Assembly (NCBI GenBank): GCA_002269645.1
Contig: NIVC01004151.1
Coordinates: 1-57,721 of the forward strand
Length of the DNA: 57,721 nt
Direction: 5' to 3'
Origin: Macrostomum lignano
Taxonomy: Eukaryota
Shown here piece by piece: positions 1 to 57,420 of the stretch; within the stretch, counting starts at the first letter, position 1, and the number at the start of each line of letters is the position of its first letter. The position numbers were made by a program, and so were the translations under genes. The notes below the pieces were generated by a model that worked only from the letters and a program-made list of their open reading frames with translations, had not been told where the DNA came from and ran no database searches.

Positions 1-228
1 TATGTGTTTGCATAGCTCAACTCTGCCGCAGGCAAAGCCATGGGAATTCCGTAGACTCCTAATGAGAGTAATAGGCACCTGTGTTCCATAGGGGTAGGCC
101 CCTAATGTGAATACATAGCTGCATGTGTTTACATAGGAGATATTTGTATATAAACCAGAAAATTTGTTTTCACAAATAATAAAATTTTTGAAATTCTTGC
201 TCCGTTACATCGTAATAACTAATTAATA

Positions 229-408
229 ATGGTCGATATTGGAGAAGGCTACAAACTTCAAGTACAAGAGTATGAAGGAGTACAGTTTATTGCGATTCGG
301 AAATTTTATCGACATGGCAGCACAGCAAGTTTAAAACCCGGCGTTCCCGGATTTAACCTCAACATCCGACAATGGGAGAAGTTGAAAGAACGAAGCGAAC
401 TCTCGTGA
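229..408 (+). CDS. PC4/Sub1-type ssDNA-binding domain (59 aa ORF, not in the ORF track); first domain of a frameshifted tandem-PC4 gene
   Basis: MVDIGEGYKLQVQEYEGVQFIAIRKFYRHGSTASLKPGVPGFNLNIRQWEKLKERSELS* matches the PC4 pattern (human [26 protein letters not shown]...KPGRKGISLNPEQWSQLKE). Confidence 0.8.
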   Translation: MVDIGEGYKLQVQEYEGVQFIAIRKFYRHGSTASLKPGVPGFNLNIRQWEKLKERSELS

Positions 409-971
409 AGGCGGCCCTAGGCGGGCAACAGAGGATCATCAAACTCGGTTTTGATAAGTTTGTTGAGGTTAAGAACGGCATCATCTGGCTAAGACGGCTT
501 CCAGAAGATTGCTGCGAAGAATTTTTGAAGCGAAACACTGTGGCCTTGGCACCAGCTCTGTGGCGAAAACTGTGGGAGCAGGCTGCATGGATCGACGAGC
601 AGCTGTCTGCCCCACGCCAAATTTCTGATGTGTATGAGCTGGAGTCGGGATCTTCGAGCGAGAGAAACGGTGATGATGATGACAACAGCAACAAGGACGA
701 CACCATGCGGCTTGCGAAGACTGAGGATGAGGGCGTCCAATCAAGCACTCTACGCATCGACGATGAAGTGGTCACATCAACGCCTCTACCGGTGACAAGA
801 GCTGCAGCTGGCTTTATCCCAAAGCAGGATTCGGATTTGCTGCAGGACCCAGTCTGGTATCGCTTCCGGGCTGAAGCAGCTGCGGTCGAGAACGTCAGGA
901 AGCGCAAGCAACCATATCCGCTGCGCAGGCAGAACGCCATGAGACTGCGCCTCAATGAGGATGAGGAGTGA
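372..971 (+). CDS. Second PC4-like domain plus acidic/low-complexity tail; continuation of 229-408 in the -1 frame
   Basis: IKLGFDKFVEVKNGIIWLRR...KRNTVALAPALWRKLWEQAAWIDEQL fits a PC4 repeat. Joining the frames at ~403 gives QWEKLKERSELVKAAL, colinear with PC4 QWSQLKEQISDIDDAV. Confidence 0.6.
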   Translation: MGEVERTKRTLVKAALGGQQRIIKLGFDKFVEVKNGIIWLRRLPEDCCEEFLKRNTVALAPALWRKLWEQAAWIDEQLSAPRQISDVYELESGSSSERNGDDDDNSNKDDTMRLAKTEDEGVQSSTLRIDDEVVTSTPLPVTRAAAGFIPKQDSDLLQDPVWYRFRAEAAAVENVRKRKQPYPLRRQNAMRLRLNEDEE

Positions 972-2550
972 AGAAGAAGAATAAGAAGTGCTTTGAAGAA
1001 CTTTGGTGACTGGTGACATACTTAAATTGGCTCATTTAACAATTTCTATAATTAACATTGCTCATTTATCCAGAAAACTTAATTAAGTCTCTCCATGTAA
1101 GAAAATCATGCAACTTATTGTTTCTTATCCGCTAAAAAATATAAAAGCTTCTTTTCATAAAAAAATTGTTTTCCTTTGTTCTTGTGCTTAAGAAAAAAAT
1201 TAGACTGTTGACTTTTGTTTCTTGAGAAAATGGAAAAAAATTATTTGCTCCTGGCCAACCAGCTAGTTTTTCAATTTGCTCAAAGCTGCTGCATCAAGTT
1301 AGAGAAGAGGGTGGGCATAAAAATTGAAAGAGCATTGAACAGTGGCTCAATGAGCAAACCGCGAAAAGAACTTAAAAAAATTTCATTCTTTCTGGCAGGA
1401 ATGAAACTGGCAGGCTTTCATTCAGCTTGATTTTGATAATGGAAAAGATCTACTACAACCCTGCTCAGCCTGCCAGTTTCAGGCTCAGGCTCGAGTGCCA
1501 GCTCAGTTGTCTGGCACTCGTGGCAAAGCAACCAGCGACTTATAATGCAGCTGTCTTTTTTGTTATGGAGCTTTAACCCACCGAGCTCACATGAATTGCA
1601 GCTGATGCACACCTCGTGCACGTAGGATGGACACCGAGATTTATTCATTATTTAAAAATCTATGAGAAATTTAGTTTAAAATAAAATTTAAATTTAAACT
1701 TCTCATATGCACATATTTAGCCTCTTATATACCCACTTCAACCAAATCTGTGTTAATAAAAACATAGCCGCTATGTTTTCAGCTTTGCTATGTTTACAGT
1801 CAGCCACCCAATGTCCAATGATTTCATCAGCGCATCCAGGTATTGAGCCCTTGTTAAATTCCCGCACGCCCCGCTAAATTCTTTTGAATACGCCGCCAAC
1901 TTTACCCCACCCAGTCGAGGGTGGCAATAAAACTACTGATAACTGAGCACTCTCTCCTTTCAGCAACAAAGCCGCCGCCGCCGCCAGCTCCCAGACAGCG
2001 GGAGAGAGAGAGGCTTGGCTACCACTATGTTTGTTTACAGAAGTTTGTTATTACCGATAAAATTATATAATAAAGTATTAGTATAATACTGAATACAATA
2101 AAATACCGCTGATATTTGCCAATCGTTCAACACAATTTCTAGAGATTCCCCTAGCTCGCCTCTGTGCATACTTGCGGATTCCCCCATGAGGTGCCTATGA
2201 ACTCTCATTAGGAGTCTACGGAATTCCCATGGCTTTGCCTGCGGCAGAGTTGAGCTATGCAAACACATAGGCGCCCTTCTGATCCGGGCCCACGGAATTT
2301 CCGTGGCTTTCCCTGCGGCAGAGTTGTGTTATCCTCTACTACTCCGGTGCCCCGCAATCCTGGCAGAGCAGGAGTCCGTCAGGCCGAAACGATGTCGGAC
2401 CTCGGCGCCCAGCATGGAAGCACAGGCTCGGAGTTGGCAGGCAGCTGTGTGCTCGGCCCAACTTGGAACTTGTTCGCTCCCAGGCTCTGCGGCGCGCCAT
2501 CTGACGCGCCCTGCTCTAACTGTGACTGTGCATGCGGGGTCGCATATACT

Positions 2551-2840
2551 TTGTTGTTTGTTGTTGTTGTTGGTGTGAAAAGTCGGCTAGGTAGGCCGGT
2601 GGCATGACGCTGTCATCAAGGCGAATAGCGGCCTTGGCGGTACTACTGAGCGAAATGGCAGCCGAGGTTTGCGGCAGGCGGGCTGCGTGATTTGCGGTTC
2701 GGTCGCGGCTTCATTAGCGGGTATGCCACAGTGGGCAGGGACCCAGGCGAGGTCGATGTCGTTGTAGTCGCAGGTGCCCAGGTTGATGAGGTTGTTGATG
2801 ACGCCAGCAGATAGGCCGCTGTTCCTTGCTGTATACATCC
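2551..2840 (-). mobile_element. Decayed non-LTR retrotransposon fragment (RNase H C-terminus) with a (CAA)n tail
   Basis: DIDLAWVPAHCGIPANEAA, then after a frameshift DRTANHAARLPQTSAAISLSSTAK, a typical LINE RNase H end. (CAA)n at 2551-2573 on the minus strand. Confidence 0.7.
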
Positions 2841-3519
2841 AAAGGGATTTATCCTTGAATAAACTAGCTCGTATACATGTACTCGTAGCTTAATTTTGAC
2901 AGCAATATCATCATCTCAATTAAGCGACCCCCTGCGAGAGCCTTTTCATCTCAGCAACTCCCCAATCATGCAGCCTTGACATCTCAGCCATACCCCATGA
3001 GCCTTAATAGCCGGACAGCTCAGCGATTCTACCTGTGAGACACAGCATTTCATAAATATCTTCCAGCTTTTCAGTCAGAGCAAAATGTTTTACCTTGAAG
3101 TACACCCGATCAAAAATACTTTCTTTCCTAGAGTTTTTTAATATTTAATCCTATAAAAATGAAGCAATTTCTTAGTAAAATTACGTGTACCAGCGCGTTA
3201 TCAATGCGCATAGAATATGCTGCAAAACCAAACGAAAATCGGTTCCCGCAGTGTCATGTTAAACCAAAGTTCTCAAGCACAGATGATACAACAATATATT
3301 GTATATTTAAAGCAGTGAACTTTGACAGCTTGGCTTTTGAAGACTGCTTCTCGGAAAAGTTTGCCAAAATATACAGCAGTATACGTTCATGTAGGGTATT
3401 GAATACTGGCTGAAAAATCATTGGCTATATGCAGGGGTGGGGGAGGTGGGGGTGGCCGATGGCCTCCCTTGGGTACCTCTGTAGTAGCTGCGGCGGCCCG
3501 GTATTGGCGCCCTTCTGAT

Positions 3520-6800: not shown

Positions 6801-9800
6801 CTACCGGGAGGACAGGGGGGGGGGGAGGACATGCCAATGCCTTGTCCCCCCCACCCCATCTTCGTTGACCTGTAATGGAAATAAAAAAATCGCTTCAGAG
6901 CGACAAAACATAGCGCCTGCGGACAAAAATGGTGCCTGCGGCGCTAAAATGAGTGCCTGCGGCGCTAAAATGGGTGCCTGCGGTGCTATAATGAGTGCCT
7001 GTGAACCAAATTGAGTGCCTGCGGCGCTAAAATGAGTGCCTGCGGTGCTAAAATGAATGCCTGCGGTGCTAAAATGGTCGCTGACGACACCGATTCTGAA
7101 AAAATGTACATATAGTAATTTAGTCGTGTACATGTACATTTACAATTCTTGGCTTTGTCCCCCACCATAAAATCCATGGCAACGCCCCTGGGCATATACA
7201 CTCTCTTTGCCTTGGGGGTTGGCCCTCATGGCACCACACCTCCCGGTCAATCTTCCGACCTTCTACGGAATCGAACCAGGGGTCGTGTTGCGCGAGATTC
7301 AGACGCATTATAACTGAACTTCTCTGCCCACAGTGTTTTAAGGCAGTCTGCCAAAGGAAGACACACCTGGTTGAAGTAGTTTAAGGGAACTCGCAGCTCT
7401 GCAATGCGACCCAATGCGGCCAACAAAAGGGCCGGTAGAGGCTCGCTGTGACCGCTGCAGCACACCTGGATGCCGTTGCAGCTTCGAGAGACGCTCAGCT
7501 CAAGGTCGGCTTCAACCGCTTGCATTTTCAGATCGGCCAGCTCTTCAGAAAATAGATTGGCCAGAATGCTGATCTGCAGAGACGAGGCCAGGGCGAGCCT
7601 CACAACGTCAACTGGAGGCAGCAGGTCAACGGATATGTAGGCAAGTTCGGTTTGGAACCGGTCATCTTGTCGGAACCAGAGATTAGTGCTGGATGAGCTG
7701 CCGTCTAGTGTACTTTGGCGTTTGATTTTTCGAGGCCCGTTAGGCTGTGGGTTTTAATTATCGTTTTATACCGCAGATACTACATGATGAATACGGTGAA
7801 CTCATTGCTCATAGCTCATTGGCCCATAGAGTAGAAAGCAGTTGAGTAGAAAGCTTCATTGGATAAGACTCGTTTATTGGTCCAGCTCGCTTTAACCGTA
7901 GCTTAAATTTTTTCTTGAACACGTCTTTTCACAAATAGTCTTTTTACCTCCTCTCTAGACCTCTTCAGCCTAACGCTTTCATGCAATGCATATTCTCAAT
8001 GACGCTGTTTAGTGCACATTACGTCTGCATCAATTAGCAAGCTGTAGACGTCTACAAGTCACTACAACTACGGTTCTTTACATAAAATAGCTATCACATT
8101 CTCGCTTGCTACTTCCTGACTGAAATTTAAGGAACTAAGCTGGCATGTCTAGTAGTCCGTGATCTATCGATTATAGCAAATGCGGTTAATGTCAGTATGA
8201 CCAAAAATATGACCGCAGTCAAAAATTTATTTATTTACTGACCTGATTAGTTAAGTCTCGGGGCTTTAAACTAAAATTTTTGCACACAAACGGCCTCGGT
8301 CTTGGCCAGGTGAACACAGTGTCAATCTGACAGCTTGCAGTTGGCCATTCGGCTCTGCACAGAGCCAATAAGTTTTCAGACAGCTTCTCCAAATTGTAAG
8401 GAGCTATGCCGTCGGGCTGGCAGCACAGCCTTCCGTCGGGAGCTGAAGTTGATGTGTTGAAGTTGCGATTGTTGCTTCTTAACTACAAAATACATGATTT
8501 ACTATTCTTCGACTACAAAACCCTTTGGTCCCGCAAGAAACAATAAAGAGATTTTAGCGCTTTTTTGTTGTTGAAATTCTTGCAAATTTAAGTCCGCATG
8601 ATCAAGCGAAACTTGTGATGGCCAAGTTCTAATAAATCCATGTACACACTCTGTGTGCCTTGGGGTTAAATTGGTAGGACAGCCCCTAGAAAGATTCCTG
8701 GAACAAGCCCAAATTATGTAGACTAACACAATCGAAGCATGGTTTGTGTTGTGCAAGAGTCAGAAACGCTTCCGCTGAGCTGGCCTGCCTTAACAAAGTA
8801 AAGACAGCAATTCTCAACAGTTTTTAGACTCTCTGTTCGAAATTCATACGTTCGAAATGCATCTGACTCTTGCGCAACACCACCGGCTTGTGCATAAAAT
8901 TAGCGAGAAGGGGGTTGCAATGCGTACACGATTTACGCCTTCGAGAGCCAGAGGCACAGAGAGTGTACATGCCTGACGATTAGTAAGTCAGGGCCGCTGT
9001 ACACTCTGCGTGAGCGTGTGTATGAGTGTGTGTCTGTGTACAGTATTGACGCTCTCGTATGTACGTGCTCAGGAGTCAGCGGAATGGCCAGAATTGCAGC
9101 GCTGGTTGTGGAACGATGTCGCCGAAGGCGTTGCGCCGTCCCTACCTACATCGCTCCTGCGAAGGTTTATACTTTTTATAACCCAAGTCTCACAGCTGAA
9201 TAAGCATACGTGCTCCGTATGCCAGTCCAAGTCGGAAACGAACACTCTGCACTGGTCCACAGTCAGACAAGCCAGAAACCCGTTCATTTCCTCGGCAGAA
9301 TAGCTCGAAAGCAAGTGCCTGGCTGAGAGCACATCCGCGATCTCGTACCGGTGCAATCGAGTCGCGATGTTGAACTCGTCATTCACCAATGGCAGGCGTT
9401 TTAGCTTCAGAAAAGCAGACCAATCGTCAACTTCAGGTAGGAAATGCGCCCGTCTATCTAACCTGACCTCATTGTGCAGCTGTTCGAAATGCTGCGCCTG
9501 ACTGCGGATCATTGCCAGGTAGCGGAAGACTGCACTAATTATCTGCGAGTCAATGAAAGTAAGTTGCGAAGAAAAAATTAGGAAATAAGTTTTTATAAGA
9601 GATCGCCTAATGAAGAGTACGAAGATACTGAAGCGATATTAAAGACACAGAAACAGGTCCTTAGCTTATGTCGAAGCTTATGTGAAGCTCAAAGTTTTAA
9701 TATTGATCTCAATTAGATTTCCGCCCTTGATAAATTTAACCAAACGTACCAAGTCTTCTGTTTCCACAGTATACTTCGTTGTTTCATCGCAGTGAAGAGC

Positions 9801-11427
9801 AATGCAGAACGTATCAAAATCAATGCAGCCTGTGTCCGTCAGGGACGCGCTATCTAGCTGAACTCCGAGCTTAGTACGCAAATACTCCTTCAGACTGCCC
9901 AGTCCATCCCTGCCAAACAGATACTTCACTAATAGATCGGGCGATTTTTTGTGCAGATCGGTCTGATCTGGCAGCGGGAACACAATGAATATGCCGCCCA
10001 AGTTCATGCGCTTGCCGCGAATCTGTGCATAAGTAGCAGGGGTGAGTGGATGCAGTGGATGCAGTAATCCGCACTGCTAGACACAATTTCTATGTTTGTA
10101 TTCTTCGCCTCAAATCCACTGTTTTTCACTGTAAACTACCAGAGGAAGAACACCCTGAAAATTAGCCAGAGTAAAAGGCCAGTGACGAGCGAGGCCAGAG
10201 CTGACGCAGACACATGTCGTCGACGTGCTGATAAAATTTGGAGAGTTGACAAGGCCGCACTGAGACGCAATGCTGATTGACACATAGGGGTGTATTGAAA
10301 TGCACTAAGGTTTACAAGGGAAAAATTCTGGTAGAATTGTTGAATATCTCGACGGTCTGGAAAATGGCTAATTGGTATTCTTTCTGTTAATTTAGGAGCA
10401 CTCTTTTTCGGTGGCTGCGTTGACGTGACGCAAAAAGCCTATATTTGTCTGTGTAAGCAACCAGTACTAACTCGTAAGTATAGGCATTGTAAGTTTAAAT
10501 AGTAGTCACAAAGAAGGAGTACGTCACTGATCAAGTCTATTTCCCAATTACCTTGGTTCCGCCTAACGCAGTGTATGATCCCTCCAACGGATGCTGACCC
10601 TTCGAGCGTACTCGAGAGTCAGTCGGGGTTGAAAAATCAAATTTTGTGGCGGCAGTCAGGCTCTGAAATAAAGAGTTCGGAGTTCTCATTTAGGGATTAG
10701 ACGCCTGTAGTTTATCGCAGTTTAAATTGGAGTTGAGTATTTTTTATTTCTAGTTTTAATACTTCACTGTGGCATGCTATTTGTTCATTGAATGTCATCC
10801 CGTACATACCACAAGCTCGTCAGTTGAGCGACCATCTTCCAAAGCCATTCGCCTCCGGCAGTTTGAGTTGAAATGCCGCTTGTGGAATTCAGCTAGCCTA
10901 TCGCACAGTTCCTCGATCTGAAACAACTCGACTGTGCGCTGGCTCGGTTGAACCATCCGATTGTAGGGGTGATTCGAATTTCCCGAACAACGCTGCAGCC
11001 AATTCAAAGAGGATAGTTGTTGCTTGTACTTTTCCTTTTTGATTAAATACTTGATTCTGTTCGCAGAAAATTCTGGTGTTGTAATGCTTTTGATCAACTG
11101 TTTGAGCACCTTTGATACGCTGTCTGAGGAGGTTATTTTGTAGCTGAACTCAGTTCGGTCATCGGCAACTCTCACACTGCCAGTCAAGCCGATTGTAGAA
11201 TCCGTTTGCATGGCAACCATGCCTGCCAGCAGTTCAGCCAGTCCCAGACAGTCTGGCGGATCGTGCAAGCGACCAACACCGATGGTGAGGCAGAGCAGCG
11301 ATTTTCGATCGAGCGTGTCCTCAGTTTGGCTGACTAGACAGGCCGAGTAATTAGACGCTGTTTCTATGGCAACGCACTTCGACTGCAATGGTGCCGGAAC
11401 ATCTTTTAATATTTTGCCGATTTCCAT
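3845..11427 (-). CDS. M16A (insulysin/nardilysin-like) pseudo-peptidase A, complete, ~1057 aa
   Basis: Phase-consistent exons 11427-10810, 10662-10552, 10022-9750, 9542-9194, 8442-8243, 7744-7367, 6588-6450, 6369-5738, 5223-4954, 4310-4203, 3940-3845, with no frameshift. IDE-like motifs VGRLHDPPDCLGLAELL, FPLPDQ, VFRYL, WFRQDDRFQ, YWRHITCGDYDF, RRVLSVH. HxxEH is replaced by ELLAG. A further upstream exon cannot be excluded. Confidence 0.85.
4478..4810. repeat. Intronic tandem repeat, ~126-bp unit x~2.5 built from TGTACATTGGGG sub-units
   Basis: Direct repetition is visible; it explains the repetitive ORFs at 4433-4816. Confidence 0.85.
5495..5670 (+). repeat. Dispersed repeat family R2 (about 200 bp; core TACTGTACGCAGGCAC...CACACGCTCACACAG...TCGTCAGGCATGTACACTCTCTG)
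   Basis: Related intronic copies at ~6700-6790/7192-7225, 8940-9140(-), 24020-24135, 28575-28700, 30785-30920(-), 51440-51625(-), 53885-54055. Confidence 0.75.
6790..7191. mobile_element. hAT-like MITE carrying a 21-bp minisatellite, inserted into an R2 copy
   Basis: TIRs CAGGGGCGTCGC...GCAACGCCCCTG, imperfect 8-bp TSD GGCACGTA/GGCATATA, internal (GAGTGCCTGCGGCGCTAAAAT)n. The R2 sequence resumes after the element. Confidence 0.7.
8940..9140 (-). repeat. R2 dispersed repeat copy
   Basis: Reverse complement similar to 5495-5670 and 53885-54055. Confidence 0.75.
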
Positions 11428-12134
11428 CGCCACTTTCAGTTGAACGAGCTAAGTGTCTAGAATTTTAAGAGTAGAGATGAAGATGCGTAAGATTAGTTAC
11501 TCTGTAACTCTGTCTTAGGTACTCTGGTCGCAGGTACTCTGATCACAGGTACTCTGGCCACAAGCATTCTGGTTAAGTTATTGTGGTATTACGGTAAAAG
11601 ACTCAAATAAACTTCTGCTAACTGCTTCTGCTAAAATGTAGCAAATGTATCTATTAGAGAAAAAACATATGGCAAATGCCACAGCTCAACTTACGTTTCT
11701 GATCCAGCTCAAAGAAAGCAGATTGGCCGCAATATTTTTTTATGTTAGAGCAGTTCAGTCAGATTCACGGGAAAAATGATTTTAAGTACAGTTTTATATA
11801 CTCTTGGGGTCTTGAAAAATTATCGAAATTCCATTTTGGCTCAATCATTAATGGTCCGTTTCTTTACTTTGTTCTTCATACATTTACTTGTCGGACTTTT
11901 TAGACATAGAGTGGTGCGTTTGTTCAACTAATTAAATTGGAAAATCTTCTTTCATAACAAAAATCGCCCCTCAAATATCTTTTAGCGGTAATCAATTTTC
12001 TGCAAAATTTAGTCTATGACACAGATTTGAGATCAAATTTAAATCATCATGAAATACTTTTTAATCTTCGGTAGTTCGGTCAAGCAACTGGTGGTTTAAA
12101 GGACAAAAGAAAGAAGATCCAAATTGCATGAAGA

Positions 12135-25308: not shown

Positions 25309-28300
25309 GGTAGCTTGCTGCCATATCTGGACCGCAGCGTCGAGCTGAGTAACGGAGTGCAAGCTTATCTGATCAGTCAGAACAGTTTTGGCGGCATTTT
25401 TAACCATAACGGTTCGGTTTTGACTATCAGCATTGGTGTGGGCCACCTGCAGGACCCGCCCGATTGCAGAGGCCTGGCACGGCTCTGCCAGCGTCTAGCT
25501 ATCTCTCGAAAGACATTAAAATTAAAATCAATTTATAATGAAAAGATGCGCGTTTTTGAAGCTCACACTGAGTACAGCGTTTGCATGGGGGGTTTCACGG
25601 AAATGCCCGTGATTTTAGAGCAGCTGGCGGCCGACATACTAAGACCCGAGTTTAGTAGGTATGAAATCGGACGAGCGCTGATGAGGGGAATGCCTGATAG
25701 TCCTACCGATTGTATACAGCCTGTTGAGAGGCTGCAGCGCTGCGCTGGCAATCCAAACCATCAGTTTAATAGGCTGCCTGACGAGCGGCTAATTACCAAC
25801 TGGACTGAGGAAAAGCTGCTGGACCAATTGACGCAGTTTCACAGCCTCTACTACTCTGGAAATTTGGTGAGGCTGGTTGTGGAGGACTCGCGTTCGCTCG
25901 ATGACTTGGAGGTGAGGGACGAACTAATAATAGTTATGCTGGATTGCATTCTTTAAAATTGAGTACAATTTTGAGTACAATTGGCTACGATTTCAGGCCC
26001 TAGTTTTGGCTACTTTTGGCCAGCTTCCAGACGCATTTGCTAATCGGATTCTGTTCGGTACGCACCCGTTCGATGGAACGAAAATGGGAGTCAAGGTGCG
26101 TTATTTTTCATGGGAAAGCATTCAAGTGCTCGGTACTAGAAACTCGTCGGGTTTGCCACTGACGTCGGGTAGTGCAGAAACCTAGAATTAAGCTGGCCGC
26201 ACACGGAATCAAATCGTCCTGCATGTAGGTGTTTTAGACAAAGCCAAGAATTCTGCAAGTACATGTACACGACGAAATTCCTAAATGTACAATATTTTCA
26301 GATCCGGTGTTGCCAGCACTCATTTTAGCACTGCACACTTAATTTAGCGCCACAGGCACTCATTTCAGCGCTGCAAGCACTCATTTCAGCGCCGCAGGCA
26401 CTCATTTCAGCGCCGCAGGCACTCATTTCAGCGCCACAGGCACTCATTTAATTGTCGGCTTTAATTGTCGCCATGCAGCAAAAATTATGCCCCCCAGATC
26501 TTTTACTGGAGGGGACATGTCCCCCCTGTCCCCCCCCGTTGGCGACGCCCCTGCGTAGGCCGGTAAAAAGGGAAGTCTTATTTGTCACATCGATAGCTAG
26601 TTTATTTTGTATGCTCTCATAGCGCTAAATGAAGTTTTACCATAGACTACTTCGGTCGAGAAAAACCCGGTTCCTTGAGAGCATACTAAATGCTTTAGCA
26701 ATACGGCAGATATACGTTCCTTAAACCATGGGGCCTCCCGCCGGCAGCACAGCTTCCGCAGCTCACCATCGCAGCCACCTGCAGCTGCACTAGTGTTTAT
26801 CTGTGGCCAGCAGCGCACCCGCAAACTCCCACAAGGTTGTACTTTACCAACCTCTAGCAGATTTCTAAGAAAATGTAGTGTAGCACCCTGTTACTCCAGT
26901 TGGAAAACTGTAAAATTAATCCCTGAGTTTTTACATTGCATTCCTTATACTCCATTGCAAAAAAACAGATTCGAAGTAGGGGCGTCAACTTGGACGAGAT
27001 TAGATTTGTCTTCCCTGTGCCAGATCAGTCTGATCTGTTTGAGACCTCGCCAGACTTGTATGTGAGCTACCTGTTCGAAACATTATTTGGAAAACTCTCG
27101 GATGCATATTCAAGACAACGAGGAGAGCTACCGGAAATTCTTCGCCGTTGTCCAGTTGCCAATCTTTTAGACTACGGCTATACTGGCTTTGACTCCTATC
27201 AAATTTCGTTCAATACAACTTTTTGCCAGAAGAACTGTTCTGCCGAGATGGAGGACGAGGTACTCAGATTTTTTTTAAGCTCTCTCTCTCTCATTTCGTG
27301 ATTTCTTGATATATTTTTGTTAAACTTTTTTCTCATTTCAGACGATCAAGTTTGTATTTCGCTTAATAGCACTAATACGAAAAATTGGACCAAAAAAATG
27401 GCTGCATGACGAAATTAGACACCAAAGGCGAACAAAACTTGCTAAAAACTTTGAAGATATCCTCTATCGCCGTGCTAACATTATAAACGTTTTGGACGAA
27501 AATTTAAGCGTTGCATCTCGACTACTGAGATTCCCCATTCACAAATTAATTTTCGCTGGCTATCTGCTCAACGAATACTCGCCTCGAGCAATCGAGGACT
27601 TTCTGACTTGTTTGTCGCCCGAAAAATGCAAAGTGTTCGTGTCGGATCTGAATCGCAAAGGCGAAGCTTCAAGTAAGTTATTAGGAGCGCAGGCAGTAGT
27701 AAAAACCTACATGTAGTTTATTTAGAAAAAAATAACTCTTTTCTTTGTTGCTGTCTTCCCAACCGGAGGGCACATATTGCTAGTCTAATTTTTGATCATC
27801 TTACAAGAACCACGCACTAGGCTGGCATTGAGGCCCATTCTACAAACGTACTTTCAGTTTGAAACACTCTGACAACACTTCATTAAATCAAAGAAGAAAC
27901 AACTGCAGTTGATAAAATAAAATAAATTGATCATAATTTAAGCGTTTCATAGTAATTCCGCAGAATCGAACTAAAGGGTCATATAATACACTATCATACA
28001 CAGGTGTAATGCTAACTCAGTAACTTGTATACCCTTCTATCTCAGACGAGCCGTCCAGCCAGGCCAAAGATGCATCTCCGCACAGTGAAGAGGAATTTTC
28101 GCCAGAACTTCTAGCCGCCTGCTCGGCACCTTGGCCTGCAAACGACTGCGAATTGGAGAAAGAATTTGAAATGCCAGAGCCGAATCCGTTTGTGTGCACC
28201 GACTTCAGTCTGAAGCCCCGAGAAGAGGTTAGTCGACACCAATTTATTCTGTTTTGCATTTAAGAGAATTTAGCGAATTTAGATTTGAGAAATGCAGCTG

Positions 28301-32604: not shown

Positions 32605-32924
32605 TGATTCCTTAACTGACTGACTGCAATCCTTCGAATACACGTATGCCCATATTATGTACTCATGAAAATGTTTTGTTTCTCAAATAAATTGAGCGCA
32701 GACTTTTTTTCTACTCAGTCATCGAAACGTCCTAACTTTTAGCTACGTGTAAAAGCCAGGACAAGTGCAGCAAAATCATGGTATTTTCTGTGTCGGACTT
32801 TTGATTCAGTGGGAGGGTGAAAAGTCGATAAAAATTCTGACGTTTGGAATGAAATGTACTCGTAGAAAAATGAAAGATTATGCGAACTTTAGCCTAATAG
32901 TTAATAGATCAGTTTTACTTGATA

Positions 32925-33500
32925 AAGGAGTGAGGTGGCTAAGAAGTGAGGTGGCTGAGGAGTGAGGTGGCTGAGGAGTGAGGTGGCTAAGGAATGAGGT
33001 GGCTGAGGAGTGAAGTGGCTAAGGAGTGAGGTGGCTGAGGAGTGAGGTAGCTAAGAAGTGAGGTGGCTGAGGAATGAGGTGGCTGAGGAGTGAGGTGGCT
33101 GAGGAGTTAGGTGGCTGAGGAGTGAGGTGGCTGAGGAGTGAGGTGGCTGAAGAATGAGGTGGCTGAGGAGAGAGGTGGCTGAGGAGAGAGGTGGCTGAGG
33201 AGTGAGTTGGCTAAGAAGTGAGGTGGCTGAGGAGTGAGGTGGCTAAGGAGTGAGGTGGCTGAGGAGTGAGGTGGCTGAAGAATGAGGTGGCTGAGGAGTG
33301 AGGTGGCTAAGGAGTTAGGTGGCTGAGGAGTGAGGTGGCTAAGGAGTGAGGTGGCTAAGGAGTGAGGTGGCTGAGGAGTGAGGTGGCTGAGGAGTTAGGT
33401 GGCTGAGGAGTGAGGTGGCTGCGGAGTAAATTGGGTGGATGGTCAGTGAGGTGGCTGAGGAGTGAGGTGGGTGGATGGTCAGTGAGGTGGCTGGGGAGTG
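32925..33500. repeat. 15-bp G-rich minisatellite (GGAGTGAGGTGGCTG/A)n between genes E and F
   Basis: About 35 visible tandem copies. Confidence 0.95.
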
Positions 33501-33828
33501 GGCTAAAGAAATAAAATGAAAATGCATTTGAAGCTTTACTTGCTTGCCTGCCTACCAAAAAACTTTTTGAAAATTATAATTATTGATAACATGATGGCAT
33601 TGTTAGCCGTAGTTACTGATAGCAGTAACTTACAGTAAGTTAGTTAGTTAGCAGTAACTTACTACGAGCTAACTTATAGCTTTCCTTAATTTAGATAATA
33701 CAACTTTAGTCAAATAGACTACGGTTTGTCTATGTCAAAAATATTTTTTTTTAATTTGAACCCCAATTAACGATGCAAAACTTTGACAATTTCAAGCAGG
33801 CGAAACAGAAGGACCCAACTCAAATAAA

Positions 33829-36800
33829 ATGACCGACTCCAAGCAGACTAATTTGCAGCCTCTTGTGCTGCACTCTCGGGTGCTTTCGCGTTTCGAAATT
33901 GATACGCCATCGCAGTACTTAAACCATTACATCCGCCAGCATCGGGCCATCGAGCTGCCCAACGGCGCAATCGCGTTTCTGTCTCATAAGCCGGACGACT
34001 TTGATGACGACAGCAGCAGCAGCAGAAGCAGCTCCGATATCGGGCCTGCAAATATGAAATCCGGGGCTGACGATGAGTCGAATGTGTTCTACGACAATGT
34101 CGAAAATGATACGACCAGCTGCGACAAAGAGTCCTCAGCCGACTGCAGCCTGCAGAGAAGCCGATTCGCTTTGGTGTGCTTCAGCATCGGCGTTGGCAGA
34201 CTGCACGAGCCGTCCGACTGTCGGGGCCTCGCCGAACTGTGCCTTCGATTGATTTTTTTCGCCTGCAATCATCCGCAGATGCAGAGTCTCGAGAGCAGCT
34301 TTGACGATACCACTGTTCAGACTCTAGACGAATCGATCTGGAACCAAGAATCGCACTACCACGCTGAAGTATTCGATGACCGATCCGAGTGCAGCTTTGT
34401 GGTCGACTCGGACGTCCTGCCGGCCGTTCTGCGGGTAGGTGTTTTTGCAATTACGCTCACTTGGCGGGGGTTGCAGCCTAATGGTTAGAGCGTCGGATTC
34501 ACGACTTGAAGGTCGGGGGTTCGATTCTCGATCCCACTGGAACAATTTGTGTCCTTGACCAAGACACTTTGAGTGCCAGCATTAGCTGGTGTAATTGAGG
34601 GTGTGTGTGGCGATCCCCCAATCCTTTGAATGAACAGCCGTACGCAGCCTTCAGATGCACCACGCAATTGCTGCGGCTGAGCTGTCAGTTGCACATCTGC
34701 CCATTGGGGCATGCAATTACGAGTAGTTTAACACAGATGTAATTCGTATTTTACTGAGAAAAACAAATCAATGTCAAATGAACTAAAATTTAATGCTACC
34801 ATAGATCTATTATATTCTAGCTTATAATGTATAATAATAATGTATATAGTTACATGTAGGTTAAATCCAGAAGTCATGTTAGTGCTCAGGGGTCGCTTGT
34901 TTAAGACCGAAATTTCATAACGCCGGAAGCAACTGCATGGTCCTTCACAAGATCGAACTATCTACTCTATCTCACCTGCTCTATCTCACCCTTGATTCAC
35001 ACCAGCCAGCGGAACCAGTTAAGATCAGTAGCAAAGTTAGGATGAATTCGAAAAAATAACAAGTGAAGAATAGATGTTAAACCCTCGCGTTAAGTATAAT
35101 AAATTTTCCTCACGCAACCCCTTAAGAGTTTAATCATCAGATAACCCAGACTCGCAATCTGGCTGATTCCCACGGACCCTACACAATCGTCCGTCATCTC
35201 AAACAACTAATTATTAAATGTAGTTGAATCACCGCCCCACATAGAATACGTTCATAAAGACCCTTTAAAGTGCAGTTAGACTTTTAAGCAGCCTGCACTA
35301 GTCCTTTACAATGCAGTCACCAAGCACGGGTGGCTTTTTGTAAGAGTATGTCTGTTAACAACTGCTACACTCCACCACATAATAGTAATAATAATATTTG
35401 ATTACACCTGCCCCAATTGGGCCAGATGTGCATCCTGAAGGCTGCGTACGGCTGTTCAGTCCAAGGACTGGGGGGTCGCCACACACACCCCAAACTACCC
35501 CAGTTAATGCTGGCAGCCATTTTACAGCTGGGTGAACTGAACCAATGCAAGTTAAGTATCTTGCTCAAGGACACAGATCGAGAATCGAACCCCCGACCTT
35601 CAAGTCGTGAATCCGTACTCCACCACGTTCTGATAACACTGCAATTTTTCTAATTCCTTAACCTAAATCCTATTCTTAATGGTCCCTCAAAAAGTCTCTA
35701 AATTATATCAGATTAAATATGATCCTTACCCATACTAAACTACAGAGCCTAGGCGCCAGCATAAAGTCTCCAGAATTCAACGAAGTCTACATTGAACGCG
35801 AGCAGAAGAAACTGCGCTCAAAATGCCTACGTGAAGGCCTGCCACCGTTGGACCTTCTTGAGCGCAGTTCTGGAAATCCGGACCATCCGTTCAACCGCTT
35901 GGTGCTGGACAATGCGAATACAGTGGCCTCAATCGGCAGCGAAGACGTGAAAAAGCGACTGTTTGAATTTCACGCCAAGTATTATTCGGCTAAGCTATTG
36001 CGGATGGCTCTCGTGTGCAGCAAACCGCTGGACGAATTAGAGGTTAGTCTCTTTTTTTAACGAGTATCATTATATAGTTATTTCCAATTGTATATCCATA
36101 CAAGGGCTGTGTATCTAACATAGCAGTGGTAAAGACCAAGACCCAGGTTCTGTGCACCCAGTGTGCTTGTGAATGTTCTACACAAAAGCATGTCCAATGG
36201 TCCAGACTAGTTAAAAGTCACAGATTAGCCGCTTTGCCAACCTCACATTTCAGGAAATTTTTGTTGACGCATTCGAAAGTCTGCCCGGCGAGCCCGTTCC
36301 TTGCATCAGATTTAACTGTCATCCGTACGATCGTTCGGAGACTGGGGTCAAGGTAAAAATTTTTGCGTTTTTGCTTTTTTGCCCATCGAAATGTTTGTGT
36401 TTTATTTTTTTATTTACTTTTTTATATTATTGAGTCAAACATACTCATAAACACAGACACATAGACAGTTCTCTAATTCACTAATAGACAGTAATCTATA
36501 ATTTAGCCCCTGATGCTAAATCCCCTGATGCTAAAGCCCCTGATGCTAAAGCTCCTGGTGCTAAAGCTACTGGTGCTAAAGCCCACATGACTACGTCACT
36601 GTAGGAGTAGCTTTTTGCTGCATCCTAATTAACACAGCTCAAAATGGTAGCTACGCGCTAAAGTTTCTGGTTCTTCAAGAATAATAGTTTTTTCAATAAA
36701 AATACTAACAATGTACCTAGCGCCCTTTCTATGATCATCTGCAAGACACTGCAACTAATCTAAAAAATAAGACATCTTCATCGACGACACTTACTTACAG

Positions 36801-39843: not shown

Positions 39844-42800
39844 GCGGAGTCAGTGTCAATAAGTCAACAAGACGACAGTTCGGCATTGTCGCGCATTGCT
39901 CGCCGTCATGAAAAACTCCTAGCCTTGCCGTCATCTGACTGCTCATTCCGCGTCATTGAGCTGACAAACGGTGTCCAAGCTATCCTGGCCAGTCGAAACA
40001 GTTTCGGAGGCCAGGAGAGTAACGAAAAATCGCTTGTGTGCACCACCCTGGGCATTGGGAGACTACACGATCCGACTGACTTTCGAGGCTTAGCAGAGCT
40101 GTGCCATCGCCTCACACTGGTTGGATCAAATCGACGCCTCAAACATTCGATGGCTTGAACGACCTGCTGCTAGACAATAGTTGTGAAGAGAATGTTGAAT
40201 ATGCCATGGGGGTACACGATGACCAATCAGTGTACAAGTTTACTGTTCCAGCGAGTCTAATTCCGGAAAGCCTGTTTCGCCTAGGCTGTGGATTGGTCAA
40301 TCCCGAAATTAGCAACGAAAGCGTCGAACGCGAGCTGCTGTCTGGTCAGTTCAGGCGCCAGATTCCAGCCCAGGACTGGTTGGAGCGCTGCTCGGGAAAT
40401 CTCACCCATCCCTACAATCGAATGGCGAAAGGTGCCCAGAAAACTATTCGATCCTACACATCCGAGGAACTAAAAACTCGCTTGATTGCATTTTTCAATG
40501 AAAACTACTCTGCGAACTTGTTGAAGCTGGCTATAGTGGACAGCAGGTCTCTTGACGAGTTGGAGGTTAGTTTGCGAGCCGTATAAAAAAATCCTATTGG
40601 AAGTAGGCACACTAATACTCGCAAGTTAATAACGAAGCCTTCAGATATGCGTGGTTTAATAACTTTGTACTCATTGCAGAAACTGGTGGCAGCTCATTTT
40701 GGAAGCATGCGGAATTTGTCAATCAACCAGTTGAAGATTTCAACGCATCCGTACGAAGGAACATTGATGGGCGTAAAGGTAGGTGCTTCAGACTTTATGT
40801 GTGTATTTTTGTGTACGTTTAATAGCAGCAGACAAGGAGTATAGACTCGCAAATTAGAATGTCACATTAGAGAGCGTTCTTCTTGTTCAGCTTACATTGG
40901 TTCCCCGACCAGAAGTAGAACCCGAGGACGCTCTAACCTATGAACTCCTGCCTAAAATTACACAATAGCTTACATTGGTTCCCGACCACAAAAGTAGAAC
41001 CCGAGGACGATCTAACCTATGAACCCCTGCCTAAAATTACACAATAGCTTACATTGGTTCCCGAACACAAAAGTAGAACCCGAGGACGCTCTAACCTATG
41101 AACTCCTGCCTAAAATTACACAATAGCTTACATTGGTTCCCGACCACAAAAGTAGAACCCGAGGACGCTCTAACCTATGAACCCCTGCCTAAAATTACAC
41201 AATAGCTTACATTGGTTCCCGACCACAAAAGTAGAACCCGAGGACGCTCTAACCTATGAACCCCTGCCTAAAATTACACAATAGCTTACATTGGTTCCCG
41301 AACACAAAAGTAGAACCCGAGGACGCTCTAACCTATGAACCCCTGCCTAAAATTACACAATACACTTAACTAATCTAGGTTCGCAGCAACTGTCTGAGTT
41401 TAGGTCGAAAACTTTACATGGTTTTCCCCTTGCCGGAGCAAACAAAACTGCACTTGACTTCGCCGGACATGCTCGTGAGCTACTTGATCAACAACCGGTG
41501 CAAGGGGAGCATTAGCGACTGTCTCGAGCGGCGTCATTTAAGTACAAACGTGTTTGGACAACTGGTCAACAGAGGTTCTGTAGGCTTCGACTCCTACTGC
41601 GTGACTGTTTTCCACCAGAATAAAGAGTTGGAGATGGCAGAGAGTGAGAACAAGGTGTGTACGAATAGCGATTTACATGCGTTTGTTGCGTATACATTGT
41701 TGCGTATATCACACGCTGTTCTTTCTAGAGAAGTCGTGCGTCCGACGCTCTCATGTCACTCACGACTTGAAGGTCGGGGTTCGATTCCCGATCATACTGG
41801 AACAATTTTTGTCCTTTAGCAAGACACTTAACTCTGCATTGTTTCAAGTTCACCCAGCTGTAAAATGGGTGCCAGCATTAGGAGGAGCAATTAAGGGTGG
41901 TGTGTTGCGATCCCAAAGTTCTTGGACTGAACAGCCGTACGCAGCCTTCAGATGCGCCGCCCCAAAGCTTCGGCTGAGCTGTCGGTTGCACATAGCCCAA
42001 TTAGGGAAGGTTTAATGAATTATTATGTTTTTATCCTCTTTAAGAAGAATCTGACTGTAAAAAAGTTTTCACAATGATCGACAACCTTCAATAAACTTCA
42101 ATAAAAATCAGACGTACGCGTCTATTGGTTAAGATACCTTTAAAAAAATTTCACTATCGCAAGCTTTTAAGCTCATATTTTACAGACTCAGTAAAATACC
42201 ACACTTATCTTCAGATAATCACAATAGTATTTCGCTATCTCGCAATGCTGCGCCAAATTGGTCCACTGGAGTGGCTCTACAACACTTTCCGCGTAGAAAG
42301 ACGCAAGGGTCAGACATTTGACGACGAAAATTCTTCTACTGGGCCTCGTTGGAAGCTGAACCCGTTGCAGTACTACTGCGACCAGCTGCTAGAGTGCCAC
42401 ATGCAGCGCTACCCTCTGGAGAGCTTGTTCACTGCTCGGTACGCGTTGCCTGAATACTCGCCTCGGGCCATTACTGACTTTCTGGAATTTTTGAAGCCCG
42501 ATAATTGCAAGGTGTTCGTTTCAGGCTTTGGCACAGACGAGTCTCATATGTGCACCTTTCTGTGTAAGTTGTCCTTTAATCTACAAAATGGTTACTAATT
42601 AAGTATCGGATAATTTAAAATCACTTATGACGTGATCTTCTTCGTTAGATTACTGATTATTCCATCCTTTCACCCGCAGCTCCTGATGGCAAGCTCTGCT
42701 GCGAGCCGGATGGCCCAAATTTCTGCAGTATGGAAAAGCTCAAACCGGAACTGATTGCCACCTGCTCAGCTGCTTGGCCTTCTTCATCGTGCGAGTTCGA

Positions 42801-45800
42801 TACTGAGCTGAAGCTGCCAAAACAGAATCTGTTTTTGTGCTCCGATTTTAGTCTGAGGCCCGACGAGACAACTGATCAGGTCGGTATGGATTCCTAGCGG
42901 TGATGCGGTGGTCCAGATCTGTGTTAGGGTAGGTTAGGTTAGGGTAGTCGGATAGCTATAGTTCTAAGAGGGGCTTTTAGTGCTGCAGCTAATCAAGTCG
43001 ACCGTTGAATCGCAGACAGAGTGGAAGCACACGCTCACACATGGTGTACAATGCCTATGACTTCATGGCTGAATATGAATTGCAAGAATTGTACGGAGGA
43101 GTAGTTGTGTTATTGTGTCGACTTTTTTAAATTTCAGCAACCACAAGGACCGCGGCTGCTACGATTCGAAGCCGGGCCGCACACACCAGCCGCTCGCTTC
43201 TGGTTCCAGCAGGATAACAGGCTCCAGACTCCGATTGTCTTCATCTCAGTCGATTTGGTGACTTCGCCTGAGCCGCTTGTGACCGACTGCGCCTCGTCCG
43301 TCATGCTGGATATTTTTGTCGTGCTCCTAGTCGACCAGCTCAACAGCCTTGAAAGCCAAGCCAAGCAGGTTGATCTACGTTTAAAAGTGTCGCGCAGCAA
43401 ACAGGGCATTCAGGTGTGCTGCAGCGGCTACAGGCAGCCCCTGCCAAGTCTTGTGGCTGCCGCTCTGAGTCGGATTTTTGAGCTGAAGATTACGGAACAT
43501 GCATTTCGTAAGGTGAGCTGTGCACAGTGTCTAACTAGAATTTTCCCGCCGACGAATATTTCCTGACGAGTTTGGCCTTGGGGATTCTTCTTAACTGCTC
43601 TGAACATATTTTTAAACGAGGCCAGCTGTTGAGGGGGCGCCAGCTACAGAGGGGGTGCCAGCAAACAGAGGGGACGTCAGCTACAGAGGGGACGCCAGCT
43701 ACAGAGGGGACGCCAGCAAACAGAGGGGACGCCAGCTACAGAAGGGACGCCCAGCTACAGAGGGGGTGCCAGCTACAGAGGGGGTGCCAGCTACAGAGGG
43801 GGTGCCAGCTACAGAGGGGGTGCCAGCTACAGAGGGGACGCCCAGCTACAGAGGGGGTGCCAGCTACAGAAGGGACGCCCAGCTACAGAGGGGGTGCCAG
43901 CTACAGAGGGGGCGCCAGCTACAGAGGGGGTGCCAGCTACAGAGGGGACGCCAGCTACAGAGGGGACGCCAGCTACAGAGGGGGTGCCAGCTACAGAGGG
44001 GACGCCAGCTACAGAGGGGACGCCAGCTACAGAGGGGGTGCCAGCTACAGAGGGGACGCCAGCTACAGAGGGGACGTCAGCTAGAGAGGGGACGTCAGCT
44101 ACAGAGGGGACGCCAGCAAACAGAGGGGACGCCAGCTACAGAGGGGACGCCCAGCTACAGAGGGGACGCCAGCTACAGAGGGGGTGCCAGCTACAGAGGG
44201 GACGCCAGCTACAGAGGGGGTGCCAGCTACAGAGGGGGCGCCAGCTACAGAGGGGGCGCCAGCTACAGAGGGGACGCCAGCTACAGAGGGGACGCCAGCT
44301 ACAGAGGGGACGTCAGCTACAGAGGGGACGCCAGCAAACAGAGGGGACGCCAGCTACCGAAGGGACGCCCAGCTACAGAGGGGACGCCAGCTACAGAGGG
44401 GGTGCCAGCTACAGAGGGGGCGCCAGCTACAGAGGAGGTGCCAGCTACAGAGGGGACGCCAGCTACAGAGGGGGTGCCAGCTACAGAGGGGGTGCCAGCT
44501 ACAGAGGGGGCGCCAGCTACAGAGGGGGCGCCAGCAAACAGAGGGGGCGCCAGCTACATTGGGATGCATTAATTGCCTACATGGATCATCGGCTCAGCAA
44601 ATATAAATTAATGGGTTATCAATCTCCTCATTGTTTCAGGCTCGACGGAAAATATCTGCCCTGGAGGCGCAGAAAACGCACAAAACGGACTTGTGCAAGT
44701 CGCAGCTTGCTATGCTACTAAATAGCGCCTGCTCTTGGCACTGGTCGTATCAGGATAAAAGAGTCGCTATTAACGGTATGTTTGCTAATATCTAAATATT
44801 CAATACAAAAATTCCAGACGAACTCTCTTCTCTACAAACCTTCACTTCAGAAACAACTCTGGAGAGCTTCATGATATTTGTCCAGCGATTCAGCAGTCAG
44901 ATTCAGCTATCGTCGCAACCGCAACGTCTGGTCAGCGAGGACGAGGACGAAGAGGACAAACGAACTGACGCGGCTGTTGCCGTCATGAGCCTTTGGTCAC
45001 GAATCTCCCTAGCCGAGGACGAAGAAGTCGTAGAGGAGAGCTCCGCGCTGCAGCAGACACTTCAGGAGGAGCAAGACCAGCAGCAGAAGCAGCAGATTCC
45101 GCGCCAACTGTTTGCCGAGATTCTCGTTTATGGCAACGCTACAGCTAAAGATGCTGAAGCAGCCAGTCAAATCATTTTGAACGCGCTGCCATCACCGACT
45201 CAGCGTACCACTGAGACAACATTTGAAGCAGTGAGGCGTCGAGTGTATCTACTCCCCAGCGGCAGCCATCACGTGCTCAGCTGACAATATCTGCTAATTA
45301 TCAGAGGAAATCAGGGTGCGCTGTAGTACTTCAGGTGCCAAAACCGGTGCCAACTGCCGACACAAATATGGGCTTTGAAGACGCGATTAGACAAGACTGT
45401 TTGTTTTATCTGCTAATCGAGGTTTTGCAATGCCGCGGCGAGATGATCAATGACCCGTTGGATCGAGCTATAAAGATACTAATACAGAGAAATTATCACG
45501 CCTATGTTGTTACATTTGACGTTGTGGATTCACAGCACCCGACAAAGGTAGGCCTATGTGTGAGAGTAGTGAATTAACAATGTCACTGAACCGAAAGGTA
45601 GGCCGATGTGTGAGAGTAGTGAATTAACAATGTCACTGAACCGAAAAGGTAGGCCGATGTGTGAGAGTAGTGAATGAACAATGTCACTGAACCGAAAGGT
45701 AGGCCGATGTGTGAGAGTAGTGAATTAACAATGTCACTGAACCGAAAAGGTAGGCCGATGTGTGAGAGTAGTGAATTAACAATGTCACTGAACCGAAAAG

Positions 45801-57200: not shown

Positions 57201-57420
57201 CGTCCGTCACTCCCCAGCACCTGGCGGCAGTCTCTGCTGCAAGCCGAAGAAGGCAAACGAGCTGCACACGCTGGAAAAGCTGCCATCGGATCTTCTCACC
57301 GCCTGCTCAGCCAGCTGGCCAACTGCCTCCATCATGGCGGACACTTTGATCAAGCGCGCCAAGGGAAAACTTGTTTATCAGTGCCGATTTTCAACTTAAA
57401 TCGAGAGAGAAAAATTTGAG
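54253..57420 (+). CDS. M16A module I (N-half visible; continues beyond the window)
   Basis: Exons 54253-54951 (GC donor), 55025-55123, 55409-55692 (1 nt short at ~55433), 56163-56517, 57218-57420 (internal frame slips). HxxEH is replaced by QLCQR. It begins at a strong acceptor, TTTCTCTACCCTACAG. Confidence 0.75.
56640..57160. repeat. 15-bp intronic minisatellite (GGGGCGCCAGCACCA)n
   Basis: About 33 copies; source of the spurious ORFs at 56525-57267. Confidence 0.95.

Follow-up and report, generated by a model that had tools for sequence, protein, structure and literature searches.

Does the short gene that lies just inside the left inverted repeat of a Macrostomum lignano element, and whose PC4 domain breaks off after 59 codons, conceal a second PC4 domain in an overlapping frame, and if so, what would a mobile element gain from the two being joined? 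This question is raised by positions 229-971 of contig NIVC01004151.1 (assembly GCA_002269645.1), of which we analysed a stretch of 57,721 nucleotides, here called the window. Our best explanation as a whole, to which we give a probability of about 0.6, is that 229-971 is a frameshifted gene in an element that internal deletion would have cut down from a Polinton/Maverick (adintovirus), and that the first ~126 residues of the intact protein would form a PC4-like pseudo-dimer of SSB-like use, followed by an acidic linker and then a basic C-terminal segment. The gene does lie within an inverted-repeat element, as the original prediction had it; the features on which the argument draws are as follows.

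1-80, no strand: left inverted-repeat arm, 97.5% identical to 2189-2269, running off the start of the window
147-154, plus strand: putative TATA-box-like site, found by a motif scan with a consensus that we assume, 82 nt upstream of the start codon
229-387, plus strand: PC4 repeat 1, from its strands to halfway through its helix (Pfam PF02229, PDB PC4/MoSub1, relatives)
388-392, plus strand: frameshift site (comparison with three intact relatives)
393-428, plus strand: remainder of the repeat-1 helix plus a short linker, in the frame of ORF2 (helix at 45-63 in the model of a relative)
429-608, plus strand: degenerate PC4 repeat 2 (hhalign profile match, secondary structure of the model)
609-845, plus strand: variable acidic linker, probably disordered, with a conserved S-T-P motif (charge profile, alignments)
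846-971, plus strand: conserved C-terminal segment and stop (DPxWY..R, basic RKR cluster, RRQxAM)
1230-1430, plus strand: 66-aa ORF, no Pfam match, PHROG E 0.25 at best
1439-1480, plus strand: YYNP-containing stretch, possibly an eroded integrase start, resembling what we take to be the beginning of Polinton-type integrases
2189-2269, no strand: right inverted-repeat arm, 97.5% identical to 1-80
2292-2332, no strand: second copy of a 41-nt sub-repeat, 88% identical to 2218-2258
2338-2343, no strand: ACTACT, inferred right end of the element, an (ACT)2 motif 6 nt past the sub-repeat

Two open reading frames share the gene. ORF1 (229-408, plus strand, 59 aa) ends with a stop codon at 406-408 and is overlapped by ORF2 (372-971, 199 aa), which runs in the -1 frame relative to it; the 199 codons of ORF2 without a stop were matched by none of 2000 base shuffles. 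A search with the ORF2 sequence yielded two single-frame relatives among 346 candidate proteins, and a further one, started from the first of these, added a third (3 of 51). Because each of the three intact relatives (P0001 to P0003; 246-272 aa) spans both ORFs without a change of frame, we read 229-971 as one frameshifted gene. Residues 1-52, from ORF1, are identical to theirs at 38 to 43 of 52 positions, and residues 55-128, from ORF2, at 47 to 53 of 74; among themselves, the relatives share 40 to 41 of the 52 residues before the break and 50 to 62 of the 74 after it. Since the window's copy is about as close to the relatives as these are to each other, and ORF2 is stop-free, this copy appears little decayed and the lesion would be either a recent mutation or a sequencing error. 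Split as it is, it most likely makes no working protein. When the alignment to the three relatives is followed residue by residue, the match stops at 385-387 and restarts at 393 in the other frame. The frame switch thus falls between 387 and 393 and not at the CTCTC of 400-404, where the repair point had been predicted; at that motif the downstream frame is already in register with the relatives. The contigs that encode P0001 to P0003 are just 1.0-1.1 kb long, about the length of a transcript of this gene, which gives a hint of expression.

Could the two pieces be functional as they stand, either as a heterodimer of the 59-aa chain and a 199-aa chain begun at ATG 372, or through programmed frameshifting? 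ORF2 is open and conserved, and its ATG has a purine at -3 and a G at +4, as in what we take to be the start-site consensus. When the window's two pieces were folded as separate chains (contact agreement at least 87%, partner pLDDT at least 71), they scored 0.43 as compared with 0.01 for the best control, a pass at a height where passes are wrong more often than right unless the complex is likely beforehand. Of 78 solved pairs, 51 reached the mark, as did 2 of 108 mismatched pairs, and passes at 0.60 or below included only 5 of the 78 solved pairs, yet all 4 passing mismatches (of 180). The support that the predicted complex draws from this score is weak, and the score may stem from similarity to the solved PC4 dimer. 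Set against a functional split are the single frame of all three close relatives, the position of the break within the repeat-1 helix, and the ATG at 372 itself, which is a by-product of conserved Gln-Trp codons in repeat 1. A slippery heptamer (X XXY YYZ) is absent from 331-410, and around the break there is no usable intron, the GT..AG spans there measuring only 8 and 16 nt. Programmed frameshifting or splicing across the break was rejected for want of such a site and of a plausible intron, and we consider a functional split in any form very improbable.

The 59-aa PC4 domain that had been proposed for the first piece is well founded. ORF1 scores 33.2 bits against Pfam PF02229 (E 3.6e-8; gathering cut-off 25), and among 177,635 PDB sequences its six matches are to human PC4 (E 7e-6) and MoSub1 only. 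In human PC4, F77 and W89 stack in the binding of single-stranded DNA and are required for it, while R70, R86, R100 and K101 contact the backbone (PMC4350104, in part). Repeat 1 aligns with a Tyr at F77, a Tyr at W89 and an Arg at R86, and the Arg and Tyr at the R86 and W89 positions are present in all 16 rows of the protein family described below that have repeat 1. At R70, R100 and K101 it carries Tyr, Val and Pro, and the corresponding basic backbone contacts are absent.

The second repeat is not visible to ordinary searches. ORF2 has no match in Pfam at E<=10, no meaningful one among PDB sequences and none to ORF1 by BLAST; the piece 393-620 has none in PHROGs; Pfam finds just one PC4 stretch in each intact relative, and the family profile reaches PC4 in the PDB through repeat 1 only. 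A profile of the family's repeat 2 (16 rows) does match one built from 131 canonical PC4 domains in hhalign (86.8%, E 4.2e-6, 57 columns); none of 100 column shuffles scored as high, and reversing the profile brought the match down to 0.1%. Without three distant members the match stands at 81%, and with close or mid-range subsets only, at 22-46%, none of 40 shuffles scoring as high for any subset; the profile signal hence leans on the distant members of the family. The family's own repeat-1 and repeat-2 profiles scarcely match each other (1%, E 0.057). In a feature search of the Atlas, PC4 clusters came up with repeat 2 (0.86) as well as with the pair of repeats (0.89), the top match for repeat 2 being a viral PC4 cluster in which Preplasmiviricota is known for one member (0.86); we treat these as leads only. 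The predicted order of elements in repeat 2 is three strands, an inserted short helix, a fourth strand and a long helix, and its distance from repeat 1, 69 residues, lies in the range of 63-76 residues that holds for 52 of 87 spacings in canonical tandem PC4 proteins. Judged from these profiles and alignments, repeat 2 appears to be a remote PC4 homologue over the whole domain. Of the two PC4 parts originally predicted, the first is thus above the Pfam cut-off; the second exists as an ORF in the -1 frame (372-971) and is PC4-like by remote profile match, but it is not a PC4 domain at the level of Pfam.

Repeat 2 has lost both stacking aromatics: the hairpin is shorter at F77, and a Pro occupies the W89 position in 10 of 17 rows. 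The PG..G ridge is lost as well. A Lys or Arg is kept at about R70 (17 of 17), R86 (11 of 17) and R100 (16 of 17), and the residue that follows the R86 position is Arg or Lys in every one of the 17 rows. As read from the alignment, the pair would therefore be asymmetric, with the stacking aromatics in repeat 1 and basic residues only in repeat 2.

To model the unit, residues 1-129 of P0001 were given to AlphaFold together with 17 family rows and without canonical PC4 rows; a canonical protein with two PC4 repeats and a DEK_C domain (P0038) had been dropped before the profile tests and this second fold, as a guard against circularity. The model (pLDDT 91.8, pTM 0.83) has strands and helices in two repeats, a short helix in repeat 2 replacing the long ridge strand of repeat 1. 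Its repeat 1 superimposes on human PC4 with an rmsd of 1.4 over 64 residues. The whole unit is most like Pur-alpha I-II (3k44; Z 9.8, rmsd 4.1, 117 residues aligned), a Z score just moderately over the background of that structure search, and it also resembles MRP1/2 (Z 7.5) and Whirly (Z 6.4), 114-117 residues being compared. With Foldseek, PC4 and MoSub1 ranked first in the PDB, the best E being 2.6e-3 and none reaching 0.001; among viral models the sole match below 0.001 was MOSUB of a Branchiostoma lancelet adintovirus (E 1.1e-4, TMq 0.73, rmsd 5.6, 14% identity, 155 alignment columns). An earlier full-length fold from a three-sequence alignment was useless (pLDDT 47.6), and its fold search returned helix noise (best Z 4.4). 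From the model we consider it very likely that the two repeats fold as an intramolecular pseudo-dimer, and the full-length match to 3k44 would imply helices that are swapped between the repeats. One protein with two PC4-type repeats, which the original prediction had obtained by mending the frame, is accordingly what the three single-frame relatives, the profile match and the predicted fold each point to, and its suggestion that structure prediction might reveal a pseudo-dimer within one chain was borne out by the confident two-repeat model resembling Pur-alpha I-II.

Beyond the two repeats, the protein was expected to end in an acidic tail. The middle part is acidic, but the end is a conserved basic segment. 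In the full-length model pLDDT is below 50 over residues 127-226, and the three motifs of the C-terminal segment (DPxWY..R, the RKR cluster and RRQxAM) are all present in four of the five relatives checked, P0007 having the first only. The basic segment may serve as a nuclear-localisation signal, to judge from its composition.

How widely is this arrangement found, and does it derive from the host's own SUB1? A profile of the three relatives matched 59 proteins among 1.84 billion, 58 of them new. Thirty-eight of the 58 carry two to four Pfam PC4 repeats, and tandem PC4 as such is common. A further 13, in which the alignment takes in the second half or both, have at most one scoring PC4 repeat; together with P0001 to P0003 and one later profile match they make up a family of 17 members. 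The intact relatives of the window's gene have about 250-270 aa, the first ~126 residues being the two-repeat unit. We found no genomic copies of the relatives in bacterial or archaeal genomes, where one 11-residue match was spurious, being the start of an unrelated, presumably sigma-factor-like ORF, and tblastn of P0001 against 50,697 phage records gave no match. Many of the proteins P0008 to P0060 have four canonical PC4 repeats spaced by ~68 residues, often with DEK_C; each of these cellular proteins is likely to comprise two single-chain PC4 pseudo-dimers, an arrangement without mention in the available part of a review of the PC4 fold (PMC7549692).

A retrocopy or tandem duplicate of host SUB1/PC4 would account for a repeat 1 that scores as PC4 and for an intronless gene. 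The family's sequences speak otherwise. The P[GT]xKG motif, which 109 of the 131 canonical PC4 domains carry, occurs in 0 of 16 repeat-1 sequences of the family, and GxPG, present in all 16 of these, in 0 of the 131. In a quick tree (67 columns; 81 of the 131 canonical domains, the first two per protein) all 17 family rows, that of the window included, lie on one side of a branch that separates them from the 81 canonical domains (SH-aLRT 91). Because the family forms a branch apart from canonical domains, the retrocopy reading fails, and on the motif counts and the tree, in which the comparison was with canonical domains and the host's SUB1 stood outside, we find an origin from SUB1 hardly credible. 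We therefore regard the family as distinct from canonical PC4/SUB1, as represented by the 131 canonical domains, the host's own SUB1 not being among them.

What kind of element carries the gene? Positions 1-69 and 2201-2269 of its arms are 100% identical, and the second copy of the sub-repeat suggests that the right arm reaches ~2343. The element (1-2343) then measures ~2.3-2.4 kb, its left end lying beyond the window. Polintons/Mavericks have 13-25 kb (PMC10748475, in part), and those of vertebrates most often end in (AGT)2//(ACT)2 with 6-bp duplications (PMC8097293, in part). ACTACT at the inferred right end is a sign of Polintons that is just suggestive, because the hexamer occurs 20 times on the plus strand of the window, three of these in the first 3 kb. 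No ORF for a polymerase (pPolB), integrase, ATPase, protease or capsid protein was found in 1-2343 by ORF list, Pfam and PHROG. The possible integrase remnant at 1439-1480 had no Pfam or PHROG support, and its YYNP motif was not found in the available supplements of PMC8502044, PMC10748475 and PMC8097293. Since Polinton genes are absent and the size is ~2.4 kb as against 13-25 kb, we file the element as a probable Polinton derivative, non-autonomous and not itself a Polinton. Three things link the element to Polintons: its end motif, a single fold match and a motif whose resemblance we assume. Inside the element, at 1661-1707, there is also an AT-rich, hairpin-like palindrome with 22-nt arms (82%); no Rfam families were detected in 1-3000, and the right terminus folds no better than shuffles (z -1.26).

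The element might instead be a non-autonomous transposon with terminal inverted repeats, unrelated to Polintons, that captured the gene. This would be in keeping with the lack of any detected Polinton core gene in 1-2343, with a left end and target duplication that lie beyond the window, with the abundance of ACTACT on the plus strand, and with a visible arm that could stop at 2269. Yet the hexamer is found 6 nt past the arm's sub-repeat, and an adintovirus protein ranks first by fold among viral models. The gene lacks introns and adjoins a terminal repeat, like the MOSUB label in the available part of the adintovirus figure cited below, and the top Atlas match of repeat 2, a lead only, is a viral PC4 cluster (0.86). 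On balance we hold such a capture to be improbable and retain the origin from a Polinton.

To the right of the element, 2550-2838 (minus strand) holds an RNase H-like fragment (Pfam E 0.02, below the cut-off) followed by a (CAA)n-like run, which would suit the 3' remnant of a truncated non-LTR retrotransposon. Most of the remaining window, 10795-55500, is taken up by diverged genes for insulin-degrading-enzyme-like M16 peptidases in tandem, at least six or seven in number, with coding segments that repeat at 12468, 21386, 34180, 40042, 48065 and 54427 and one on the minus strand at ~10795-11433. One 21-bp minisatellite unit recurs in both orientations at 6905-7089, 26261-26501 and 52112-53061; the array at 6.9 kb appears, on inspection by eye, to be bounded near 6789 and 7190 by short inverted ends and is possibly a small mobile element. 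At 34574-35515, inverted arms of 81 nt (89%) stand 780 nt apart, and with related segments at 14451, 17054 and 41900 they probably form a MITE-like family. Further long minisatellites occupy 32814-33550 (16-bp unit), 43623-44589 (18 bp), 56638-57221 (15 bp) and 40831-41441 (79 bp), and several long ORFs of the window are by-products of such arrays.

What would the intact protein do? Judging from its predicted fold and the residues kept, it probably binds single-stranded or melted DNA, and as a single-chain unit it would do so without a partner chain. Binding would be asymmetric, repeat 1 giving the stacking aromatics and repeat 2 serving as scaffold and phosphate contact. Polintons are thought to replicate by protein-primed strand displacement, and we know of no ssDNA-binding protein among their core genes. 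The core-gene lists in the available parts of PMC8097293 and PMC10748475 name none. The most probable use of the protein would be to coat the displaced strand and help to melt the ends during replication of a full-length parent in the nucleus; this is the weakest step of our explanation, and we put such a role at somewhat below even odds. It could concern intact relatives in a full-length parent only, because the element has no polymerase and the copy is frameshifted.

The same fold and mobile origin would also suit a regulator of transcription acting at viral or host RNA polymerase II promoters. PC4 and Sub1 are transcription cofactors (PMC4350104, in part). The acidic linker and the basic C-terminal cluster fit a nuclear regulator, and a single aromatic repeat would be better suited to a short bubble than to the coating of long single strands. 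Acidic tails are typical of SSBs too. In addition, the title of PDB entry 4bg7 links the PC4 homologue of phage T5 to DNA replication, and we consider the transcriptional role unlikely, while keeping ssDNA binding in replication as the preferred use. A more sweeping proposal, which we advance tentatively, is that Polinton/adintovirus elements across animals may carry asymmetric single-chain PC4 pseudo-dimers as their own ssDNA-binding replication factor, a counterpart of the adenovirus DBP that would have arisen by an independent duplication of PC4, with MOSUB as a member.

The window's own copy is of little weight in itself, being split and lodged in a defective element. An element-encoded PC4 pseudo-dimer would, though, offer Polintons a small, soluble and assayable candidate ssDNA-binding protein. 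It would also provide a clear example of a homodimeric fold turned into an asymmetric single chain whose second half is invisible to Pfam; because that half escapes Pfam, genes of this sort are annotated simply as SUB1/PC4 copies.

Among known systems, MOSUB (UniProt A0A5H3CIS2, 203 aa) is a candidate relative, the best viral fold match and of similar size, but differs in sequence (14% identity, rmsd 5.6). In Supplementary Figure S2 of Starrett et al. 2021 (PMC8502044), as far as the layout of its text shows, a MOSUB label stands beside an ITR label, and SSDBP is also labelled, twice; MOSUB, Sub1 and PC4 have 0 mentions in the main text, and no paper with both adintovirus and MOSUB was among the matches listed. 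Polintons/Mavericks share with the element their terminal inverted repeats (here at least 80 bp, 97.5%) and an (ACT)2 motif at the inferred right end, but not its size of ~2.4 kb or its lack of their core genes. A literature search pairing Polinton/Maverick with PC4, whose reach ended before most subscription journals, Repbase and bioRxiv supplements, gave no relevant paper, PC4 in the one match being a cluster label. Neither PC4 nor SSB is mentioned in the available text of PMC11071308, and no PC4 gene appears in the available supplements of PMC8097293, PMC11131425, PMC11161782, PMC10748475 and PMC10120064, a match in the last being a cluster id.

Human PC4 and MoSub1 (1pcf, 4usg, 4bhm), type II homodimers, resemble repeat 1 in sequence and fold, and MoSub1 likewise has a Tyr at the W89 position. 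The family differs from them in holding two repeats per chain, the second degenerate, in having no N-terminal extension, and, within repeat 1, in GxPG replacing PGxKG and in the changed R70, R100 and K101 positions. The PC4 homologue of phage T5 (4bg7; Z 5.8) is likewise a viral PC4 fold tied to DNA replication by its PDB title, but it is a homodimer of a single repeat. Cellular multi-PC4 proteins (two to four repeats, often with DEK_C) have tandem repeats at the same spacing of 67-70 residues; their repeats, in contrast, are canonical and Pfam-positive and fall outside the family branch. Single-chain domains of two repeats define the type I class of PC4-like folds, with Pur-alpha, Whirly and MRP1/2 (Janowski & Niessing 2020; PMC7549692, in part). 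PC4-like folds bind ssDNA and destabilise duplexes, and asymmetry between repeats has also been described for P24 and MRP1/2 (PMC7549692, in part). The family shares with this class the single-chain, two-repeat pseudo-dimer predicted here, but identity is ~10% and by sequence it would descend from PC4 proper; in the available part of that review, no type I member listed comes from a mobile element or belongs to the PC4 family by sequence. The fold class is thus already known, as is a PC4-like gene labelled in adintoviruses, while the tandem asymmetric anatomy and the family that shares it appear undescribed.
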